Of a DNA stretch of 64,000 bases, positions 8,604-45,273 are shown in pieces. Positions within the stretch are counted from its first letter, which is position 1. Each line of letters starts with the position of its first letter. Source of the DNA: an uncultured Mollicutes bacterium (GTDB lineage: Bacteria > Bacillota_I > Bacilli_A > RFN20 > CAG-826); NCBI GenBank assembly GCA_900540365.1, contig UQFN01000001.1, positions 103,636-167,635 on the forward strand, read 5' to 3'. The notes beneath the pieces were generated by a model. The model was not told the DNA's origin. It did not search any database and saw only the letters and a list, made by a program, of their open reading frames with translations. The position numbers and the translations under genes are program-made.

Positions 8604-11264
8604 TTATTTCTTTTTATTTTCTCTTTGTAAGAGAATTTCAGCTTGAGCAGCAGCAAGTCTAGCAATTGGGACTCTAAATGGTGAGCAAGAAACATAATCT
8701 AATCCAACTCTATTGAAGAATTCGATTGATTTTGGATCTCCACCATGTTCACCACAAACACCACATAATAATGTAGGTCTTGTAGCTCTTCCATCAGCAA
8801 CAGCCATCTTAATTAATTTGCCAACGCCTTTTTGATCAACAGTTTGGAATGGATCTTCTTCAAAAATCTTATTTGAATAGTAATCAGGTAAGAATTTAGA
8901 AGCATCATCACGGCTAAATCCAAAGGTCATTTGAGTTAAGTCATTTGTACCAAAGCTATAGAATTCAGCTTCGCTAGCAATTTCACTACTTAATAGGGCA
9001 GCACGTGGAATTTCAATCATTGTACCAATATGATATTTCATCTTAGCATTATTTTCTTTTAAGACTTTTTCAACTTCGTCAACAATTATTTTCTTAACGA
9101 ATTTGAATTCTTTAACATCTAAGGTTAAAGGAATCATAATTTCAGGTTCAATGTCTTTCTTTAAATCCTTACTTGCTTTAATAGCAGCTTCAATAATTGC
9201 TCTTGCTTGCATTCTACCAATTTCAGGATAAGAGACGTCTAATCTACAACCTCTATGCCCCATCATTGGGTTGAATTCATGTAAGTAGTTAATTCTATCT
9301 TTAACTTGTTGGACAGTAATATCTAAAGCTTTTGCTAACTCTTCAATCTTATCTTCTTCTTGTGGTAAGAATTCGTGTAGAGGTGGATCGAGTAATCTAA
9401 CATTAACTTCGATTCTTTCTAATGAACCCATTGCCATATATAATCCATAGAAGTCATCTCTTTGATATGGTAATAATTCAGCTAAAGCAGCTTCACGATC
9501 TTTAACATTGTTACTTAAGATCATTTTTCTCATATGGAAGATTCTATCTTTATCAAAGAACATATGTTCTGTTCTACATAATCCAATACCTTCAGCACCA
9601 AATTTAGCAGCTTGAATTGCATCACGTGGAGTATCTGCATTAGTTCTAATAGTTAATCTTCTATATTTATCAGCAGCTTTCATCATTCTACCAAAGTTTC
9701 CATCTAAGCTAGCTGGAACCATCTTGACAGCGCCAGCAAATACTTCACCAGTACTACCATTGATAGAAATTGTATCTTTTTCAGTATAAACTTTACCATT
9801 AATTGTTAAAGTTCCTGCTTCTTCATCAACAATTGCTGCACTACAACCAGTGACACAGCATTTACCCATACCACGAGCAACAACTGCAGCGTGTGAAGTC
9901 ATACCACCACGCATTGTTAAGATACCTTCAGCAGCAACCATACCTTCGATATCTTCTGGTGAAGTTTCTGCTCTAACTAAGACAACTTTTTCACCATTTG
10001 CATGTCTTTCTTCAGCATCTTTAGCATTGAATGATAAGTGACCAACTGCAGCACCTGGAGATGCTGGGTTACCATTTGCAATAACTTCTGCTTCTTTTAA
10101 AGCTTTTGTATCAAATGTTGGGTGTAAAAGTGTATCAAGTAATTTAGGTTCAACTCTTAAGACAGCTTCATCTTCAGTAATTAATCCTTCATCAACTAAA
10201 TCCCAAGCAATTTGTAAAGCAGCAGCAGCTGTTCTTTTACCATTTCTAGTTTGTAAGAAATAAAGTTTTCCGTTTTCAACGGTATACTCCATATCTTGCA
10301 TATCTTTATAATGTTTTTCCATCATTTTGATGGTTTTTTCGAATTGATCGTAAACTTCTGGCATTCTCTTCTTTAATTCTGAAATGTGTAAAGGAGTTCT
10401 AATACCAGCAACGACGTCTTCTCCTTGAGCATTTGGTAAATATTCAGCATAAATTTCTTTTTTACCAGTAGATGGGTCACGAGAGAAAGCAACACCAGTA
10501 CCACTTTGTTCGTTTAAGTTACCAAAGACCATTGATTGAACGTTAACTGCAGTTCCCCATTCATAAGGAATTCCGTTCATCTTACGATAAACATTAGCTC
10601 TTGGGTTATCCCAGCTTCTAAAGACTGCGGTAACTGCTTCATGTAATTGAACATATGGATCAGTTGGGAAATCTTCGTTAAATGTTTTCTTGTAATATTC
10701 CTTATATCTTTCAACTAAATCTTTTAATTGATCAGCTGTAACTTCAGTATCTAATTTATATCCGTGTTTTTCTTTGATTTCATCTAACATTCTATCCATA
10801 TCGGTTCTTGGATGACCTTTTGCGATGTTAGTGAACATTAAGATAAATCTACGATAGCTATCATAAGCAAATCTTTCATTTTCGTTGTTAGCACCAGCTA
10901 ATAATTTAACAGTATAATCATTTAAACCTAAGTTTAATATAGTATCCATCATTCCTGGCATTGATACTCTAGCACCACTTCTAACAGAAACTAAGAGTGG
11001 GAACTTACCATCTTTACCACCAAATGATTTTCCGCTTTCTTTTTCAATAGCATGAATTCCTTCATCAATTTGATTGATGAGATCTTGTGGCATTGTTTTA
11101 CCACTTTCATAATAAAGAGTACAAGCTTCTGTGCTGACTGTAAAACCTTGTGGGATTGGTACGCCAATATAAGTCATTTCAGCAAGACCTGCACCTTTAC
11201 CTCCAAGAAGTTCTTTTCCTAAGCCATGAGCTTCTTTGAAGAGATAAACGTATTTCTTTGACAT
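8604..11264 (-). CDS. ppdK: Pyruvate, phosphate dikinase
   Basis: 886 aa. Phosphohistidine loop GGMTSHAAVVARG, GLCRTEHMFF and CGEHGGDP. Confidence 0.95.
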   Translation of the reverse strand: MSKKYVYLFKEAHGLGKELLGGKGAGLAEMTYIGVPIPQGFTVSTEACTLYYESGKTMPQDLINQIDEGIHAIEKESGKSFGGKDGKFPLLVSVRSGARVSMPGMMDTILNLGLNDYTVKLLAGANNENERFAYDSYRRFILMFTNIAKGHPRTDMDRMLDEIKEKHGYKLDTEVTADQLKDLVERYKEYYKKTFNEDFPTDPYVQLHEAVTAVFRSWDNPRANVYRKMNGIPYEWGTAVNVQSMVFGNLNEQSGTGVAFSRDPSTGKKEIYAEYLPNAQGEDVVAGIRTPLHISELKKRMPEVYDQFEKTIKMMEKHYKDMQDMEYTVENGKLYFLQTRNGKRTAAAALQIAWDLVDEGLITEDEAVLRVEPKLLDTLLHPTFDTKALKEAEVIANGNPASPGAAVGHLSFNAKDAEERHANGEKVVLVRAETSPEDIEGMVAAEGILTMRGGMTSHAAVVARGMGKCCVTGCSAAIVDEEAGTLTINGKVYTEKDTISINGSTGEVFAGAVKMVPASLDGNFGRMMKAADKYRRLTIRTNADTPRDAIQAAKFGAEGIGLCRTEHMFFDKDRIFHMRKMILSNNVKDREAALAELLPYQRDDFYGLYMAMGSLERIEVNVRLLDPPLHEFLPQEEDKIEELAKALDITVQQVKDRINYLHEFNPMMGHRGCRLDVSYPEIGRMQARAIIEAAIKASKDLKKDIEPEIMIPLTLDVKEFKFVKKIIVDEVEKVLKENNAKMKYHIGTMIEIPRAALLSSEIASEAEFYSFGTNDLTQMTFGFSRDDASKFLPDYYSNKIFEEDPFQTVDQKGVGKLIKMAVADGRATRPTLLCGVCGEHGGDPKSIEFFNRVGLDYVSCSPFRVPIARLAAAQAEILLQRENKKK

Positions 11265-39165: not shown

Positions 39166-39527
39166 GGGTTAGTTCAGGCTTCGACATGAGAAGACTTGGC
39201 AAGAATTGCAGTCGAGTAATGACGTAATCATTAACAAAAATTATCTGGCAACAGAAATCAATCATTCGCATTTGCTGCTTAAGCACTCGTTATCTTTAAG
39301 ATAAGATGCGACACATTCTAAGGTTTCATCTTCTCACGCTTAGAAAATGTGTCATACCAAGAAGATAGATTATAGATATGATTGTGTTCTTTAATCGAAA
39401 ATTTACAATCTAGCAGGTAAAAGTTTGTTAGGTTTGATAAACTGCGAAATTTAAAACACTAACTAAACTGTAGTAGTTTTTGTAGGGTCTCTTGTGGACC
39501 AGGGTTCGACTCCCTGCTAATCCACCA
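39166..39527 (+). ncRNA. ssrA: tmRNA (SsrA), about 362 nt, tag (A)GNRNQSFAFAA
   Basis: 5' GGGTTAG pairs with 3' CTAATCC, giving a G3:U wobble, followed by ACCA. GGCTTCGACA 5' motif. T-arm CAGGG-TTCGACT-CCCTG. Tag frame GGC AAC AGA AAT CAA TCA TTC GCA TTT GCT GCT TAA at 39247-39282. Confidence 0.9.
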
Positions 39528-39539
39528 AATTGAAACAAC

Positions 39540-39571
39540 AGGATTGATACCAAAAATATCAGTCCTTTTTT
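39540..39571 (+). terminator. ssrA intrinsic terminator
   Basis: AGGATTGATA-ccaaaaa-TATCAGTCCT (10-bp stem, one G-U pair) followed by TTTTTT. Confidence 0.8.
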
Positions 39572-39823
39572 CATTTTATAGGTCTATTTCGCTTATTTTA
39601 GGCATAAATTGCTTAATTTTTGGCGGAGTAACCCTTTTTCTTTGCCTGTTTTAAAAGAAGGCAATTTATCAAAAGCACGAATATACTTTAACCCCTGTTA
39701 ATAGGTCTCTAGGGAAAGATGTTTAAGGTCTTTTTTGTGATTATATGGAAGTTGGCCACCAAATTTTTGGATGTTTTCTAAACTTTCCTTGAACAATTAA
39801 GGGCAAAATGATAGATAAAACTA

Positions 39824-39837
39824 GTACTATATAGTAC
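39824..39837. promoter_or_regulatory. 14-bp perfect palindrome, candidate MarR operator upstream of the radical-SAM operon
   Basis: GTACTAT|ATAGTAC lies 21 nt before ATG 39858 and overlaps -10-like TATAGT/TACAAT hexamers. Confidence 0.4.
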
Positions 39838-39857
39838 AATATATCAGGGGTGATTGA

Positions 39858-40523
39858 ATGGTTATTAGCATTAAGGATAAGATTAAGAACATCAACGCGG
39901 TCATCGGCTGCAACATCGGCTGCAGGTACTGCTACGCCAAAGCGGTGGCAAATAGATTCCACCTGACAGACGATTTCTCTAAGTCAATTGCAGATTTACA
40001 TAAATTGGAAAGATTAAAAAAGTCCGGAGTATATTTTCTGACGGGAATGTCCGATTTGTACCTATGGAAAAAGGAGTGGCTTGATAAATCGTTCGAATTA
40101 TTGAAGGAGTATCCGAAAACGGTTGGGATATATTTGACTAAAGCCCCAAATAAAATAAAGCTTGACAACGTTCCCGATAATGCTTGGATGGGGGTAACTA
40201 TCACATCGAAATCGGATTTATGGAGATTGAAAGCATTAAAGGAAAATATTAAATGCAAGAACTATCACGTCACGTTTGAGCCGTTGTTCGAGGATCTGGG
40301 CGACATTGATTTATCGGGAATCAAATGGATAGTCATCGGAACAGAGACCGGGAAATGCAAGGGCAAGATAGATGCCAAAAAGGAATGGGTCGATCATTTG
40401 GTGGATGTCTCTAGAAAATGCGGCTGCAGGATTTTTTTCAAAGAAGAGCTCGTCCATAAAATCATTGGCGAAGAAAACGCAATCCAAGAGCTCGCTTTAG
40501 AAATGGAGGAAGCATTGAAATGA
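39858..40523 (+). CDS. Gp37/Gp68 (DUF5131)-like protein with a canonical radical-SAM CxxxCxxC motif
   Basis: SD AGGGGTGA. C18-x3-C22-x2-C25 (GCNIGCRYCYA). Spaced motifs MSDLY, LTKAP, NAWMGVT, FEPL, IKWIVIGTETG, EWV and FFKEE, recalled from the phage Gp37/Gp68 family. About 48% GC. Confidence 0.6.
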   Translation: MVISIKDKIKNINAVIGCNIGCRYCYAKAVANRFHLTDDFSKSIADLHKLERLKKSGVYFLTGMSDLYLWKKEWLDKSFELLKEYPKTVGIYLTKAPNKIKLDNVPDNAWMGVTITSKSDLWRLKALKENIKCKNYHVTFEPLFEDLGDIDLSGIKWIVIGTETGKCKGKIDAKKEWVDHLVDVSRKCGCRIFFKEELVHKIIGEENAIQELALEMEEALK

Positions 40524-40951
40524 AGAAGCACTATGGTGGAACTCTTATCTCCCAAATTAAACAGCTTCAAGATAGGATTTTCAACAAGATTCTAAAAGAA
40601 GAGGGCATATACGAATTCAATGGCCAACAAGGGAGAATTCTATTTTCTTTATGGAAAGACGAGAAACTCTCCTTGATTGAATTATCGAAAAGGACTTCTC
40701 TGGCTAAAACAACATTGTCCTCGATGGTGGAGAGGATGAAGAACGACGGCCTTTTGATTGTCGAGGAATCTAAAGAGGACAAAAGAAGTCTAATTATCTA
40801 TTTAAGCGACAAGACGCTGTCACTTGAAAGTAAGATAAACAGGGCCACGAAAAGAATGGGCGATATTTTCTACAAAGGTCTTAGCGAAGAAGAGGCAAGT
40901 AAGTTGGACAGATTGTTGAACAAAGTAAAGGAGAATCTAAAAGATGAATAA
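40520..40951 (+). CDS. MarR-family transcriptional regulator
   Basis: 143 aa. Winged-helix core LSLIELSKRTSLAKTTLSSMVERMKNDGLL...DKRSLIIYLS. ATGA overlap with the upstream gene. Confidence 0.85.
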   Translation: MKKHYGGTLISQIKQLQDRIFNKILKEEGIYEFNGQQGRILFSLWKDEKLSLIELSKRTSLAKTTLSSMVERMKNDGLLIVEESKEDKRSLIIYLSDKTLSLESKINRATKRMGDIFYKGLSEEEASKLDRLLNKVKENLKDE

Positions 40952-41858
40952 GAACGTAATCATAAGGCAAATCCAAGTCAAAGACGTAATGACCAAGTCC
41001 AACGCTCCTATCGGCGGATATTGCGTCAACCCTTATATCGGATGCACACATGGCTGCAAATACTGCTATGCCTCATTCATGAAAAGATTCACAGGCCACA
41101 CGGAAGAATGGGGAACGTTTTTGGATGTCAAAAACTGGCAGCCGATCAAGAATCTTGATAAATTCAAAGGCGAGCATATCATCATTGGGACTGTGACCGA
41201 TGGGTATCTGCCAGAAGAAGCCAAATACAAGAACACTAGAAAACTATTGGAACAATTGGTGGGCGTTGACGCAGAACTGTTGATATGCACGAAATCCGAT
41301 TTGGTAATTAGGGATTTGGATTTGTTAAAGAAATTCGACAAAGTCACGGTTTCTTGGTCAATTAACACCTTAGACGAAGACTTCAGAAGTGATATGGACG
41401 ATTCTGTGTCAATAGAAAGAAAATTAAAAGCAATGAAGGAAGTGTATGATGCTGGGATTAGAACGGTATGCTTCATTTCGCCAGTATTCCCAGGCATCAC
41501 GGATTTCAAGAAGATATTCGAATTGGTTAAAGATCAATGCGATTTAATATGGCTTGAAAACCTTAACCTAAGAGGTGGATTTAAAGGAAAAATAATGGAT
41601 TATATCAAAGAAAAACATCCCGATTTGTATCCTTTATACGAAAATATATATAATAAAAAAGATAGGAGCTATTTTGAAGAATTAGAAAAAGAGGCTGTGC
41701 AATTAGCCAAAGACAACGATTGTCCATTCGTGGATAACGAAACACCATATGGAAGAGCCAAAAAAGGTCATCCAGTAATCGTTGACTATTTCTATCACGA
41801 AGAGGTTAGAGGTTCAGACAACACAGGAAAAAGAAATAGGAAGCAAGAGGGAAGATAA
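40944..41858 (+). CDS. Radical SAM protein of the SPL-like / COG1533 (SplB, DNA photolyase-like) type
   Basis: C34-x3-C38-x2-C41 in NPYIGCTHGCKYCYASFMKRFTGH. About 300 aa. 8-nt overlap with marR. Confidence 0.7.
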   Translation: MNKNVIIRQIQVKDVMTKSNAPIGGYCVNPYIGCTHGCKYCYASFMKRFTGHTEEWGTFLDVKNWQPIKNLDKFKGEHIIIGTVTDGYLPEEAKYKNTRKLLEQLVGVDAELLICTKSDLVIRDLDLLKKFDKVTVSWSINTLDEDFRSDMDDSVSIERKLKAMKEVYDAGIRTVCFISPVFPGITDFKKIFELVKDQCDLIWLENLNLRGGFKGKIMDYIKEKHPDLYPLYENIYNKKDRSYFEELEKEAVQLAKDNDCPFVDNETPYGRAKKGHPVIVDYFYHEEVRGSDNTGKRNRKQEGR

Positions 41859-41859
41859 C

Positions 41860-42224
41860 TTGAAGGCAGCAATCACATATGATGCAAAAAAACAAATAGC
41901 GCTTTCCATTATTTTAGAATAACTGAATATTTTTTATATATTTAATACCGAAACAAACGAAGAAAAGGTAATAGATAATGGTGGATATACCATCATAATC
42001 TAGCCGCATATCTAAAGTTGCTTGGCGCATCAACCTTAATTTGTGGTGGGATTGGCCTCTTGCAGAGTTGAAACTGCGAATGCTTCAGGCCTTGATTTAA
42101 TATTAGGAGCCGCTTGGTGATATCAAAGACGTAATTAAAGCGTTTAAAGATGAAAACTTACATGGTAATCCAAATGCCATGCATCGGTGAAGCATTGAAG
42201 GACATCATCACGAACGTTAATTGA
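41860..42224 (+). pseudogene. Frameshifted remnant of a NifX/NifB-C-terminal-like (dinitrogenase FeMo-cofactor-binding domain) gene
   Basis: Pieces in three frames: LKAAITYDAKKQIA, LAAYLKLLGASTLICGGIG, ANASGLDLILGA, GDIKDVIKAFKDENLHGNPNA and a His-rich end SIEGHHHER. Several stops or frameshifts interrupt them. Confidence 0.45.
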
Positions 42225-42272
42225 ATAATACACCATTTTTCGGCAAGATGAGTGGCTTTTTGATAAGGTAGG

Positions 42273-42295
42273 AAATGTTATGTTACTAGACAAAT
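42273..42295 (+). repeat. Direct repeat copy 1 (left boundary of the ATPase cassette)
   Basis: AAATGTTATGTTACTAGACAAAT matches 44032-44054 at 21 of 23 positions. It sits at the GC-rich to AT-rich transition. Confidence 0.6.
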
Positions 42296-42388
42296 AGAAT
42301 GAATAAGCTTTATACGAATAAAGTGTTAAGCCTTTTATTTTATAGTGTTAATTCATATAAAAATTTATTTATAAATGCGTTTATTCCT

Positions 42389-42457
42389 TTGAAAAAAGTG
42401 CACTTACATGCTTGAAAAAAGTGCACTTATATGTTTGAAAAAAGTGCATTATTATAG
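42389..42457 (+). repeat. Three tandem 23-bp repeats, each starting with a TTGAAA -35-like box
   Basis: TTGAAAAAAGTGCACTTACATGC / TTGAAAAAAGTGCACTTATATGT / TTGAAAAAAGTGCATTATTATAG. Only the third is followed (17-nt spacer) by a -10, TAGAAT at 42458-42463. Confidence 0.85.
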
Positions 42458-42484
42458 TAGAATCATATTGAAAGGTGATTAACT

Positions 42485-43792
42485 ATGCCAATTAAACTTG
42501 AAAATTATAAAGAACGATTAATTGATAAAACTATTGAGCTATATTTAAAAACATTTAAAGCAATTCAAATTGTTGGTCCAAAATGGTGCGGCAAAACATG
42601 GACTAGTATGCATCATGGCAATTCTATTGTTAGATTAACTGATATAGAGAAAAGAAAACTAGCTATACTTAATCCGAAGTTAATTTTAAATGAGAATATT
42701 CCAGAGGTTATTGATGAATGGCAACTAGTGCCAGAATTGTGGGATGCTATTAGAAATGAATGTGATCTGAGGGTATCAAAAGGGAATTTTATTTTAACAG
42801 GCTCAACCGCTTTACTAGATAAGGAAGAGAAATCTAAGATTAAGCATACTGGTACTGGTAGAATTATTAAAATAAATATGTTTCCTATGACAACATTAGA
42901 ATTAGGTAAATCTCTTAATAATATTTCTTTAATGGATATGTATGAAGGAAAGGTAATTAATAAATTAGTTGATCCTTTTGATATTTATGAAATTACTAGA
43001 CTTATTATAAATGGTGGATGGCCTGAAAATTTAGGTCTTTCGAATTTAGAAAGTGATGGTTTACTAGCACGTGAATATATAAAGTCAGTTGTAGAAAATG
43101 ACGTTAATGAAAATTACAATGATGATAAATTCTTGTTTGACTCACAAAAAATGATGATGATTCTTAAGTCATTAGCAAGAAATGAGTCAAGTTATGCAGC
43201 AGAAGCAACTATTTTGAGAGATTGCTTTAATTTTAGTAATGGCGAAGAACAAACATTAAATAAAAGAACATTATCTAGATATTTAGACATTCTAGAAAAG
43301 TTATACATTATAAATAATCAAGAAGCTTATTCAACTAATTATAGATCTAGTTCAAGGGTTGGCAAAAAGGCAAAGAGAAGATTTGTTGATCCGTCACTTG
43401 CGGCTGCTCTTTTAGGCTTAACATCTGAAAAACTAATTAATGATTTAAATACATTTGGATTATTGTTTGAGTCTTTAGTGGTTAGAGATTTAAATGTGTA
43501 TATGGAATATTATAGAGGGCACGTTTATGCTTTTAGAGATAATCTAAGTAATGATGAGGTTGATGCTATAGTTGAATTTAGTGATGGTGAATTTGGCGCA
43601 ATTGAAATTAAATTAGGAGATAATCAAATAGATGAAGCAATAAAATCATTAACCAAATTTAATGATAATGTCGCTAAAAAGCCTAAATTTCTATGTGTGA
43701 TTGTAGGTATAGGATCTGGACTTACAAGAGATCCTAAATCTGGTGTATATGTTGTTCCATATAATACATTAGGAATGCATTTTAATGTCTAA
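42485..43792 (+). CDS. COG1373-type AAA ATPase with a C-terminal DUF4143 (PD-(D/E)xK-like) domain
   Basis: Walker A GPKWCGKT, Walker B-like VIDEWQLVPELW, ILTGS, GTGRIIKINMFPMTTLE. C-terminal DEVDAIVEF...GAIEIK pattern. About 22% GC. Confidence 0.75.
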   Translation: MPIKLENYKERLIDKTIELYLKTFKAIQIVGPKWCGKTWTSMHHGNSIVRLTDIEKRKLAILNPKLILNENIPEVIDEWQLVPELWDAIRNECDLRVSKGNFILTGSTALLDKEEKSKIKHTGTGRIIKINMFPMTTLELGKSLNNISLMDMYEGKVINKLVDPFDIYEITRLIINGGWPENLGLSNLESDGLLAREYIKSVVENDVNENYNDDKFLFDSQKMMMILKSLARNESSYAAEATILRDCFNFSNGEEQTLNKRTLSRYLDILEKLYIINNQEAYSTNYRSSSRVGKKAKRRFVDPSLAAALLGLTSEKLINDLNTFGLLFESLVVRDLNVYMEYYRGHVYAFRDNLSNDEVDAIVEFSDGEFGAIEIKLGDNQIDEAIKSLTKFNDNVAKKPKFLCVIVGIGSGLTRDPKSGVYVVPYNTLGMHFNV

Positions 43793-43904
43793 ACTAATTA
43801 ATTTTAAATGTGACAAATACGTTGAAGTTGAAGGAGATAAGATTTCTTTAACTAAAACAACTTCACCAGAAGCACCATCAAGAAAAAACTTGAAGACAAA
43901 ATAA
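43785..43904 (+). CDS. Possible 39-aa ORF overlapping the ATPase stop (ATGTCTAA)
   Basis: MSKLINFKCDKYVEVEGDKISLTKTTSPEAPSRKNLKTK. No SD and no recognisable family. It may be a remnant. Confidence 0.2.
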   Translation: MSKLINFKCDKYVEVEGDKISLTKTTSPEAPSRKNLKTK

Positions 43905-43976
43905 AAGACTTATTCAAAGGATAATATTAATAAGCATAGTGTAAAGGATTGAAATGACAATCTAGTATCACAAAAT

Positions 43977-44064
43977 GGTACGAAACTAGTTCAAGGGTAC
44001 GAACTTTTATGAAGAGGTACGAAATTGTATCAAATGTTATGTTTCTAGACATATTTGTACGACA
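43977..44064 (+). repeat. Phased GGTACGAA direct repeats
   Basis: GGTACGAAA at 43977, GGTACGAAC at 43996, GGTACGAAA at 44016, and TGTACGACA at 44056. Spacings are 19, 20 and 40 bp. Confidence 0.7.
44032..44054 (+). repeat. Direct repeat copy 2 (right boundary of the ATPase cassette)
   Basis: AAATGTTATGTTTCTAGACATAT, a 21/23 match to 42273-42295. Confidence 0.6.
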
Positions 44065-44130
44065 TGTCTGATACATTTTATGTGAACTAAATGGGGTTCA
44101 GTTCAGCAAGGGTGTTATAATATCCGATAT

Positions 44131-44160
44131 AAGTGCTCAGTCCCGGGCACTTTTTTATTT
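44131..44160 (+). terminator. Intrinsic terminator
   Basis: AAGTGCTC-agtccc-GGGCACTT followed by TTTTTATTT. Confidence 0.65.
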
Positions 44161-44470
44161 ATCGTTTTGCCACTAGGAATTCGGCCATATTCCTGGAAGA
44201 TACCAACACAGGATAATCAAATGCTGGCCCTTTTCCGATGACCGACTTCAAAAACCGCGACACCCCACGACACCCCTGCAAAAATCCCAAGTTTGTCTCG
44301 GCTCAATCCCGCATCAGTCTCAATATAGTCTCACTTTTGGAGAGAATGCTTGATTCAAAAAGCCACTTCTAACAAAAGTCATTTCCAGCCCACGCGGAGA
44401 TGGCTTTTGGGAGGCAGGATTGTAGAGATGGGATTTTTAATTAACGGCTTCTTTTTATAACCCTATGCAG

Positions 44471-44499
44471 ATGACTCGGCTACGCTGTTACGCTATAAT
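44471..44499 (+). promoter_or_regulatory. Candidate promoter of the CPBP gene (-35 ATGACT, 17 nt, -10 TATAAT)
   Basis: Hexamers at 44471-44476 and 44494-44499. They would give a very short leader before ATG 44515. Confidence 0.45.
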
Positions 44500-44514
44500 A
44501 ATAGTAGTACGAAT

Positions 44515-45273
44515 ATGAAAGCAGTTTTGAAATATCTGATTATTACTTTTGCCATAACTTATGCTTGTTGGTGGGGCGTAGCTGCGCTTGTAGCATATAC
44601 TGATTTTGTATATGGCGACATATTACCAACATTTATATACGTTATAGGCAACTTTGGCCCGGCTATTGCCACATTATTTTGCATTGACGGCAGACCCTAC
44701 CTAACTTCATTGAAAAAATTTTTATTCTCCTACAAAAAACGCGGAATATGGTTTTTCCTTTTATTCGTCTCCCTCGTTACGCTCACCGTAGGACTTTCTT
44801 CAATGGAATGGAATCCGCAAATGACGGGGTTGAATTTTTTTATCTCGTTGCTCGGTTCCATCTTTGTTTACGGAGGTGAGGAAGAACTTGGCTGGCGAGG
44901 AATTTTACAGCCCACCTTATCTAAGAAAATGACATTCCCGCTTGCCGCGCTTGCGTGTGGCGTGATATGGGCGTTATGGCATTTACCGCTTTGGTTTATA
45001 GAAGGCCACCCCAACCAGTCAATGCCCTTCTGGGTACAAGCAACGCTCGGCATATTTCTTTGCTTTTGGCTCGGCACAATTTATGAGCGTTCAAAATGTC
45101 TGCCGCTGTGTATGCTCTTCCATGGTTTTGCCAATGTGATGTTGTCGTCATTCGTCTTAAAACTGAACTGGATATTGGTTGCCGGGATCATACTGACGAC
45201 AGCCGTTGCAATCGTTCTTTGGTTGCTTGACTTAAAACAGGCAAAAGGTATAAATAACCAGCCGACAAGATGA
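44515..45273 (+). CDS. CPBP-family (CAAX/Abi-type) intramembrane glutamic protease
   Basis: EELGWRG (EExxxR), WALWHLP (FxxxH-type) and LFHGFAN motifs in a polytopic membrane protein. About 52% GC in a sampled line. Confidence 0.8.
   Translation: MKAVLKYLIITFAITYACWWGVAALVAYTDFVYGDILPTFIYVIGNFGPAIATLFCIDGRPYLTSLKKFLFSYKKRGIWFFLLFVSLVTLTVGLSSMEWNPQMTGLNFFISLLGSIFVYGGEEELGWRGILQPTLSKKMTFPLAALACGVIWALWHLPLWFIEGHPNQSMPFWVQATLGIFLCFWLGTIYERSKCLPLCMLFHGFANVMLSSFVLKLNWILVAGIILTTAVAIVLWLLDLKQAKGINNQPTR

Follow-up and report, generated by a model that had tools for sequence, protein, structure and literature searches.

The 64,000-nucleotide stretch of DNA analysed here (the window) carries on its forward strand an operon in which the genes for two radical S-adenosylmethionine (rSAM) enzymes, proteins A and B, enclose a gene for a MarR-family regulator. 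We assign this trio, with high confidence, to the 'radical SAM mobile pair', a curated cassette of uncharacterised function, of which it is a divergent and rearranged version. It forms a single translationally coupled operon in the order A-MarR-B and lies in a 4.5-kb recombinase-less island (39528-44054) directly after the transfer-messenger RNA (tmRNA) gene. An earlier note on this DNA had held that the cassette was not any described one; it was right on the parts and wrong on novelty, since NCBIfam curates the exact trio (TIGR04471 for A, TIGR04470 for B and TIGR04472 for MarR), which is uncharacterised only in function. The cassette, its three protein families and their names are therefore already catalogued, and what is new is the A-MarR-B architectural variant and the definition of its probable operator and repressor. 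We propose that MarR silences the operon at a single promoter and that the two enzymes, once induced, may act together on a DNA base lesion. Taken as one chain, from identity through repression and substrate-level mechanism to movement, we give this reading a probability of about 45%.

A rearranged member of a catalogued cassette

The operon consists of three plus-strand open reading frames that encode protein A (39858-40523, 221 aa), the predicted MarR-family repressor of the cassette (40520-40951, 143 aa) and protein B (40944-41858, 304 aa). A and MarR share an ATGA overlap at 40520-40523, and MarR and B share the 8-nt overlap ATGAATAA at 40944-40951; both overlaps are retained in complete A-MarR-B loci from other genomes. 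Shine-Dalgarno-like sequences, GGGGTGA for A, GGAGG for MarR and AAGGAG for B, stand 5-10 nt 5' of the respective starts. These frames, overlaps and ribosome-binding sites are all present as the earlier note had listed them, and so are the CxxxCxxC motifs of the two enzymes, formed by Cys18/22/25 within GCNIGCRYCYA in protein A and by Cys34/38/41 within GCTHGCKYCYASF in protein B. Protein B has further conserved cysteines, of which C115, C176 and C260 are invariant across the family and C199 is nearly so. The ratios of nonsynonymous to synonymous substitution against loci L001 and L004 of other genomes range from 0.03 for MarR to 0.10-0.15 for A, indicating strong purifying selection on all three genes (0.03-0.15). 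Protein A has a pI of 8.7.

Protein B matches TIGR04470 with 546 bits, above the cut-off of 410, over residues 7-291 of 304, and PF04055 (Radical_SAM) with 65.2 bits against a threshold of 29.5. Protein A clearly belongs to PF07505 (96 bits, threshold 28.9, E 3.4e-27), in keeping with the DUF5131/Gp37-Gp68 assignment first made by motif spacing, and matches phrog_2045 with an E-value of 1e-30; with PF04055 it reaches 22.9 bits, below the gathering threshold of 29.5, despite its CxxxCxxC motif. It shares the N-terminal three-cysteine motif with DUF5131 and phage Gp37-Gp68 proteins, including PDC-M30B and PDC-M41B of PADLOC, and differs from them as a compact 221-aa form paired with a COG1533 enzyme; no DUF5131 protein has an assigned function. 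The regulator matches PF01047 with 36.5 bits (threshold 24.6). Standing against the assignment to the mobile pair, protein A scores 248 bits with TIGR04471 over residues 3-218 of 221, its sole NCBIfam match and one below the cut-off of 355, while the regulator scores 136 bits with TIGR04472 over its full length, its best match by more than 90 bits and likewise below the cut-off (240). The gene order also departs from the canonical MarR-A-B, with A and B still adjacent and on the same strand. The divergence of A and MarR from their canonical counterparts, quantified below, accounts for the missed equivalog cut-offs and for the fact that close relatives of protein A are named merely 'DUF5131 family protein' at NCBI; RefSeq uses 'radical SAM mobile pair' names for plasmid copies.

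To place the trio among its relatives, architecture was surveyed by tblastn over the 80 best loci (L001-L080) among the stretches fetched from other genomes, which are labelled L001-L146. L001-L021 have the order A-MarR-B, with identities to the window of 78-94% for A, 79-98% for MarR and 87-97% for B, and come from RF39-like 'Mollicutes/Bacilli', Ca. Enterosoma, Ca. Caccosoma, rumen Erysipelotrichaceae, as well as a handful of bins that carry a Clostridiales or Bacteroidales label. L022-L080 have MarR-A-B, or A-B under another regulator, in hosts such as Faecalibacterium, Gemmiger, Flavonifractor, Ruminococcus, Collinsella and Atopobium; here B remains 71-75% identical to that of the window, A 43-48% and MarR 38-44%. 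The suspected unit is thus syntenic in many genomes, as A-MarR-B in about 20 loci and as MarR-A-B in 20 or more, and the only genes conserved around the pair are A, B and MarR themselves (69, 77 and 43 of about 80 loci, respectively). The regulator seen between the two enzymes is a MarR protein in the place described, and this internal position is peculiar to the A-MarR-B sub-clade, not general to the cassette.

The window's operon therefore shares with the canonical mobile pair the three protein families, the adjacency and co-direction of A and B, the operator core CTATATAG and a sporadic, mobile distribution. It differs in its A-MarR-B order with 4-nt and 8-nt overlaps, in the far greater divergence of A and MarR than of B, in an optional NifX-like fourth gene, and in its home in a recombinase-less island flanking tRNA or tmRNA genes of RF39-like Bacilli and Erysipelotrichaceae. 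Relatives of protein B in databases number more than 8000, a lower bound, with at least 532 relatives confirmed in species-representative genomes, and the cassette is spread over Clostridia, Erysipelotrichia, RF39-like Bacilli, Negativicutes, Coriobacteriia and Bacteroidales. A recent duplication as the origin of A and B was considered and rejected, since hhalign relates them with 92.5% probability over 29 columns only, as distant relatives.

The operon is horizontally acquired. Its GC content is 39.2% (A 40.8%, MarR 37.7%, B 38.4%), not the roughly 48% stated at first, a value that only the GC content at third codon positions (GC3, 43-52%) comes near. The remainder of the window has 27.3% GC, with a GC3 of 10-13% in dnaB and purA, so that the contrast in composition, though smaller than first put, still argues for a foreign origin, as do the unrelated flanks among relatives.

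Promoter, probable operator and predicted repression

A sigma-70-type promoter, TAGATA-17 nt-TACAAT at 39812-39840 on the plus strand (promoter scan, 9 of 12 matches), precedes gene A in a layout kept in all A-MarR-B loci. The palindrome GTACTATATAGTAC at 39824-39837, with the core CTATATAG, lies in its spacer and over the -10 element. This overlap had been pointed out before and is confirmed, and operator-like conservation in 40 or more loci makes the palindrome a probable MarR operator. A block of about 45 bp, TAGACAAAAyTAGTACTATATAGTACAATATA, is kept throughout the A-MarR-B clade though homology 5' of A is often lost, which leaves promoter and palindrome as the sole conserved upstream DNA across the whole clade. 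In canonical MarR-A-B loci the promoter is TTGACA-17-TATGAT or TTGACA-17-TATAAT, and the core is found in two inverted copies, TTGACAATAAAACTCCTATATAGTATGAT followed 25 bp on by CTACTATATAGGAG. The statistical rarity of the palindrome was dropped as an argument because perfect 14-bp palindromes are common in this AT-rich window (24 observed against about 14 expected under a first-order Markov model); position and conservation took its place.

In 1.05 Mb of fetched loci we counted 50 copies of the octamer CTATATAG. Between -3 kb and +0.2 kb of B it is found almost only in promoters of MarR-bearing cassettes, in both clades and in the 40 or more loci mentioned above, and over the same interval none was found in HxlR- or TetR-regulated A-B loci. 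The octamer thus follows the presence of MarR and not that of A-B, as expected of a MarR operator. As a regulatory site common to both clades it is a trait established by this analysis, additional to those by which NCBIfam defines the cassette. These comparisons indicate that MarR probably represses A, itself and B by binding the palindrome that extends over the spacer and the -10 element of the operon's one promoter: a MarR dimer on this site would shut the promoter and keep the three genes silent. Since the protein has no cysteine, release would probably come via a bound small ligand and not by oxidation, and binding of such a ligand to MarR would derepress the operon. No structured RNA was detected in the leader or spacers with Rfam at permissive thresholds. 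Elsewhere in the window, its only Firmicutes-type LexA-box-like palindrome (GAAC-N4-GTTC), AGAACATATGTTCT, stands at 9557-9570 inside the span of a minus-strand open reading frame (8604-11264).

Across genomes the regulator is interchangeable: the pair occurs with a MarR gene on the same strand, with a divergent gene for HxlR (the YodB-type electrophile-sensor family) or, in Collinsella, TetR, and with Rrf2 or, in Bacteroidales, AraC. A Flavin_Reduct gene stands immediately 5' of the pair in 16 loci, and recurrent neighbours include genes for flavin mononucleotide (FMN) reductases (FMN_red), an aldo-keto reductase, a Mac-type (hexapeptide) acetyltransferase, and metallo-beta-lactamase (MBL)-fold, patatin and Sir2-like proteins. 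We count this company of regulators and redox enzymes as favouring induction by xenobiotics. In three genomes (L025, L026 and L051) a gene for the 3-methyladenine glycosylase Tag precedes an HxlR-FlavinReduct-A-B arrangement.

The island at ssrA and the movement of the cassette

The 'mobile-DNA hotspot' in which the operon had been placed can be pinned down to the 3' end of ssrA, the tmRNA gene (39166-39527, plus strand), which Rfam recovers at full length (RF00023, 122.7 bits, E 1.8e-47) and ARAGORN missed; no tRNA gene was found in the window. The island starts right after the tmRNA CCA end with a 330-bp leader (39528-39857, plus strand) that travels with the cassette and holds a terminator-like hairpin (39540-39566, terminator scan), one GCACGAA (39675-39681), the promoter and the operator. 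GCACGAA occurs in this one copy in the leader of the window and in 3-4 copies in relatives. The leader is about 90% identical in L003-L006, L008 and L081; in L004, L005, L006 and L081 its start abuts the CCA of a tRNA gene (tRNA-Ala, -Glu, -Met and -Leu), and no tRNA was found at its border in L003 and L008. Flanking genes are otherwise unrelated among cassette-bearing genomes. A cassette-free Ca. Onthovivens (L146) has the same tmRNA and upstream synteny; no other genome was found to share this tmRNA 3' end, and its use as an empty-site reference failed because synteny is lost downstream.

Two modules make up the island. Module 1 comprises A-MarR-B and a plus-strand pseudogene at about 41860-42220 that resembles NifX and the C-terminal part of NifB (Nitro_FeMo-Co). 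The decayed carrier gene reported after the operon is borne out: it has several frameshifts, and its three-frame translations, stitched by hand, give 30.3 bits (threshold 26.3) and an E-value of 5e-7 against PF02579. An intact 118-aa orthologue is found 4 nt after B in L010 only (E 2e-18), and in most loci the gene is decayed or absent. A degenerate internal copy of the right-end sequence (42268-42295, plus strand), 86% identical to 44027-44054 as direct repeat D2, separates the modules, a junction also seen in L001, L003 and L004. Module 2 is a plus-strand gene for an AAA_14/DUF4143 ATPase (42485-43792; PF13173 and PF13635), which matches the PADLOC single-gene defence candidate PDC-S01 with an E-value of 1.1e-57. 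Its GC3 of 16.5% is host-like, unlike that of the trio, suggesting that the two modules have different histories. Three plus-strand direct repeats of family D1 (42373-42448; ...TTGAAAAAAGTGCACTTA...), spaced at 23 bp, overlap the promoter of the ATPase gene, a promoter-like TTGAAA-17-TAGAAT at 42435-42463; the repeat unit is TTGAAAAAAGTGCACTTAyATGy, and each contains the palindrome AAGTGCACTT. At the spot equivalent to the D1 repeats, L003 carries an inserted IS110-like transposase gene.

The right end (43978-44054, plus strand) consists of a GYACGAA cluster, with three GTACGAA repeats at 43978, 43997 and 44017, followed by ATTGTATCAAATGTTATGTTTCTAGACATAT, and homology to L001, L005, L010 and L012 ends at 44053-44055. 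A further 19 contigs (L127-L145), from metagenome-assembled genomes (MAGs) of RF39, Acholeplasmatales and Anaeroplasmataceae type, share this right end and vary in the cargo to its left. Right ends of this island family have 1-4, mostly 2-4, GGTACGAA repeats and then ATTGTATYAAATGTTATGTTTCTAGACAT; the left border, where examined, is a tRNA or tmRNA CCA end with a terminator hairpin, and in several of the 19 contigs a tRNA-terminator-like hairpin recurs after the right end. The cargo includes A-MarR-B, DUF4143 ATPases and, in L128 (as a tandem pair) and L134, large serine recombinases (Resolvase, Recombinase, Zn_ribbon_recom). In L010, two cassettes stand in tandem.

No integrase or recombinase gene was found in the window's island, which is flanked by rlmH and dnaB upstream and by genes for a CPBP protease, an ABC transporter, purB and purA downstream, and no direct repeat of the tmRNA 3' end that could serve as an attachment site was found in the window. 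The layout resembles composite islands of the staphylococcal cassette chromosome (SCC) type or cis-mobilisable elements (CIMEs). Like SCCmec-type islands and CIMEs, it stacks recombinase-less modules in tandem at a single conserved site, with a repeated end sequence bounding each module, and some sister elements encode large serine recombinases; it differs from SCCmec in that its target is the terminator region after tRNA or tmRNA genes and not rlmH, and the link between recombinase and site is putative. The island may accordingly be mobilised in trans at the terminator hairpin that follows these genes.

Canonical cassettes travel by other means as well. They are found as self-contained morons in at least three prophage backbones, where they separate the gene for Dit from that for a tail protein, separate two tail genes or adjoin the portal gene. 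Plasmid copies occur on Selenomonas pSRC6, on a Lachnospira eligens megaplasmid and on the pan-Bacteroidales pMMCAT. On pSRC6 (L082, 4479-8928) the pair lies between a small serine recombinase gene and the chloramphenicol acetyltransferase gene (cat) that it adjoins; on Bacteroides pMMCAT (L083, 6548-8861), as in Bacteroidales, it is in an operon with an MBL-fold hydrolase gene under divergent AraC regulators. In the phage locus L122 (7940-8100), about 19 first codons of a Tag-like glycosylase gene are fused to the last 31 codons of B between the genes for Dit and a tail protein, in the same prophage backbone as that of the cassette-bearing L085 (6780-8970). Many predicted phage contigs from IMG/VR (L105-L126) have at one edge no more of B than its last 25-80 codons, several of them continuing into tail genes; such edges could arise where assembly broke off at a gene present in several copies, could be what a deletion left behind, as in L122, or could mark an attachment site at the 3' end of B.

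Past the right end of the island, 44055-45273 is a further compositionally foreign stretch, made up of about 430 bp of GC-rich non-coding DNA (44080-44510) with no Rfam match and the gene for a CPBP/Rce1-like intramembrane protease (44515-45273; 43% GC, GC3 46%). In the rumen MAG of L012, the cassette is preceded at a distance of a few kb by two Gut-1 RNA matches (RF01706; 767-845 and 2375-2447) and a large signal recognition particle RNA.

Candidate function and rival explanations

Earlier work places the relatives of protein B close to DNA. Its assignment to the COG1533 branch is upheld by profile comparison: B is related to the families of PA0069 (127 bits, cut-off 360, E 7e-37) and Rv2578c (105 bits, cut-off 430, E 3e-30), and by these cut-offs belongs to neither. 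These are its closest named paralogous families, annotated as 'SplB-like DNA repair photolyase' and equally uncharacterised in function. PA0069 and Rv2578c family members are LexA/SOS genes in Pseudomonas, Mycobacterium and Bacteroidetes (10.1101/2022.03.14.484287; PMC3381160; PMC8565304), and COG1533 proteins harbour inteins, as replication and repair proteins do (PMC4760082). By tblastn, protein B also matches an rSAM gene of Yuavirus phages. Against the M6 gp53-type rSAM protein of phage Lydia it shows 27% identity (E 1e-13), and hhalign joins the two at 97% over the whole rSAM core; the Lydia gene stands between genes for an amino-acid:DNA transferase, a pyridoxal phosphate (PLP) enzyme and a kinase, which corresponds to the M6 gp51-54 cluster. 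M6 gp53 isomerises N-alpha-glycinylthymidine to the C-alpha form in DNA as part of a thymidine-hypermodification pathway (PMC8989533). By sequence comparison the gp53-type enzyme is the only tested relative of protein B. The two have the motifs TD-x-(Y/F)LP-x-E and NPV-x-PGI in common and differ in that gp53-type proteins are about 480 aa long, have transferase, PLP-enzyme and kinase partners that are not linked to the mobile pair, and lack the extra conserved cysteines of B.

The label 'SPL-like', after spore photoproduct lyase (SPL), which the earlier note had given to the third gene, survives in part: on the models, it appears to be a remote fold-level resemblance only. The AlphaFold2 model of protein A is confident (predicted local distance difference test, pLDDT, 91), and its best Foldseek match in the PDB is SPL (4fhf; E 1.8e-3, template modelling score, TM, 0.50), with viperins next. 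Protein B matches NifB, SuiB and SPL with TM values of 0.36-0.44, SPL being the longest aligned match (TM 0.44, E 3.5e-4). No SPL family was found among NCBIfam matches of the trio at E <= 0.01, and single-sequence and profile searches of A and B against PDB sequences returned no rSAM chain, nor any SPL at E <= 10. Common to SPL and the pair are the rSAM partial TIM barrel and a place in one RadicalSAM.org megacluster, which also takes in MJ0683-like proteins and in which DUF5131 is an uncharacterised subgroup (PMC9477430); they differ in the lack of a sequence-level match, in TM values of only 0.44-0.50, and in that the hosts of the cassette are not spore-formers exposed to ultraviolet light.

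On this basis we tentatively propose, at somewhat less than even odds, that A and B carry out a ligand-induced radical repair of a DNA base lesion or adduct. Upon induction, each enzyme would cleave SAM via its [4Fe-4S] cluster to yield a 5'-deoxyadenosyl radical, with electrons supplied by a host flavodoxin or ferredoxin or, in other genomes, by the co-encoded flavin reductase. Both would act on one substrate, most probably a damaged or adducted pyrimidine, or another base, in DNA, produced by an electrophilic or genotoxic xenobiotic, and radical chemistry, either bond scission or rearrangement, would resolve the lesion, much as SPL and phage M6 gp53 act on thymine at its C5 substituent. Such a cassette would amount to a transferable and inducible module for genotoxin tolerance. 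A DNA substrate is suggested by the alignment of B with a gp53-type enzyme, the SOS regulation of PA0069 and Rv2578c and the inteins of COG1533, so that everything tested or inferred in this branch concerns DNA. The SPL fold matches, the shared megacluster, the presence of both protein types (DUF5131 and COG1533-like) in phage genomes, the Tag neighbours and the Tag-B remnant of L122 point the same way. The broadest form of the proposal, in which the mobile pair is a ligand-induced, transferable radical system that repairs or reverses a specific DNA base lesion, and thereby an instance of rSAM DNA repair outside SPL and a new class of mobile genotoxin-resistance determinant among gut bacteria, we hold to be doubtful.

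A number of observations count against lesion repair by the pair. The structural matches of A and B are weak (TM <= 0.5, E around 1e-3), and the model of B is moderate (pLDDT 70.5). Protein B has a neutral pI (6.99), and the Pfam search recognised no DNA-binding domain in it. No LexA box (GAAC-N4-GTTC) was found between -2.5 kb and +1.2 kb of B in 80 loci, in contrast to the SOS-regulated relatives: PA0069 and Rv2578c are LexA/SOS-regulated chromosomal genes, whereas the mobile pair would be under repressor and ligand control and has a DUF5131 partner. The association with Tag is limited to 3-4 loci. B is kept with A lost or not intact in about 7 of 78 loci. Apparent A-B and MarR-A 'fusion' proteins, considered as a sign of interaction, were rejected as frameshift read-throughs with scrambled A C-termini, deletions, or stop loss at overlapping genes, and therefore give no support for an A-B complex. 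A literature search by family names and accessions found no paper on the function of the radical SAM mobile pair. The regulators found with the pair, finally, are typical of small-molecule detoxification.

This last point leads to an explanation in which A and B directly cleave, reduce or rearrange a toxic xenobiotic or antibiotic and MarR senses the same compound, which would make the cassette an ordinary resistance gene. All regulators that accompany the pair (MarR, HxlR, TetR, AraC and Rrf2) are one-component ligand or stress sensors; its neighbours include flavin, FMN and aldo-keto reductases, a hexapeptide acetyltransferase and an MBL-fold hydrolase, with chloramphenicol acetyltransferase adjoining it on pSRC6. 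The cross-phylum spread is like that of a resistance gene, COG1533 being among the genes co-shared in gut mobilomes (PMC10782964), and the 80 loci gave no sign of LexA control. A 2024 preprint on pMMCAT, which only enumerates possible roles, names 'resistance to toxic molecules' as one of them. We nevertheless consider detoxification unlikely, because DNA is the target of SPL and M6 gp53 (PMC8989533), the tested relatives in this rSAM branch, and is also suggested by the SOS regulation of PA0069 and Rv2578c; moreover, phage genomes, in which both protein types are common, are rarely home to genes of xenobiotic catabolism, and no transporter or efflux gene is consistently linked to the pair over about 80 loci. 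Improbable, in our view, is a role in anti-phage defence or DNA (de)modification, by which the pair would attack, remove or install a base modification on phage or host DNA in the service of the carrier prophage or island. The match of A to the DUF5131 components PDC-M30B and PDC-M41B (PADLOC, E 2e-27) is domain-level only, with 94 bits against 248 for TIGR04471; the partner models of PDC-M30 and PDC-M41 are matched by none of the five island proteins, and the PDC systems are themselves only candidates. The PDC-S01-type ATPase beside the pair in the ssrA island, the self-contained morons in at least three prophage backbones, the Tag-like glycosylase neighbours and the role of the relative M6 gp53 in building a DNA hypermodification (PMC8989533) would fit such a role, whereas a ligand-sensing repressor and the flavin reductase and HxlR contexts are atypical of it, and no nuclease, sensor or abortive-infection effector is linked in about 80 loci.

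Mobile rSAM resistance genes have a precedent in Cfr. Modification of rRNA or tRNA by A, B or both in the manner of Cfr/RlmN, giving target-site resistance to a ribosome-directed antibiotic, would accord with that precedent, with the adjacency to cat on pSRC6, with the wide horizontal spread in antibiotic-exposed gut and rumen communities and with the basic pI of A (8.7). NCBIfam and Pfam searches found no similarity to RlmN/Cfr, MiaB or other RNA-modifying rSAM enzymes, RlmN is merely a weak fold match of A at rank 46, and the need for two different rSAM enzymes would be left unexplained, which together make RNA modification very improbable. Paired rSAM enzymes that act in sequence are known from CofG/CofH and MqnE/MqnC, and by analogy two successive radical steps of the CofG/CofH kind, with the NifX-like protein as carrier, might synthesise or salvage a small cofactor-like metabolite. 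An optional fourth gene for a Nitro_FeMo-Co carrier-like protein and the frequently co-encoded flavin reductase agree with this; set against them, about 80 loci hold no further biosynthetic genes conserved around the pair, the NifX-like gene is decayed or absent in most, and repressor-controlled phage and plasmid morons are an unusual home for cofactor synthesis, leaving it the least probable of these explanations.

Ligand-induced repair of a DNA lesion thus remains our tentative preference for a cassette that is among the most widely exchanged gene sets of gut anaerobes, with prophages, mini-islands and the pervasive plasmid pMMCAT as its carriers. DUF5131 and the non-SPL members of COG1533 are long-standing blanks on the rSAM map. 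The operator and its dedicated repressor offer an experimental handle, as the inducer should point to the substrate. If either xenobiotic-lesion repair or toxin inactivation is true, the radical SAM mobile pair would represent an unrecognised mobile resistance trait with a bearing on drug-microbiome interactions.

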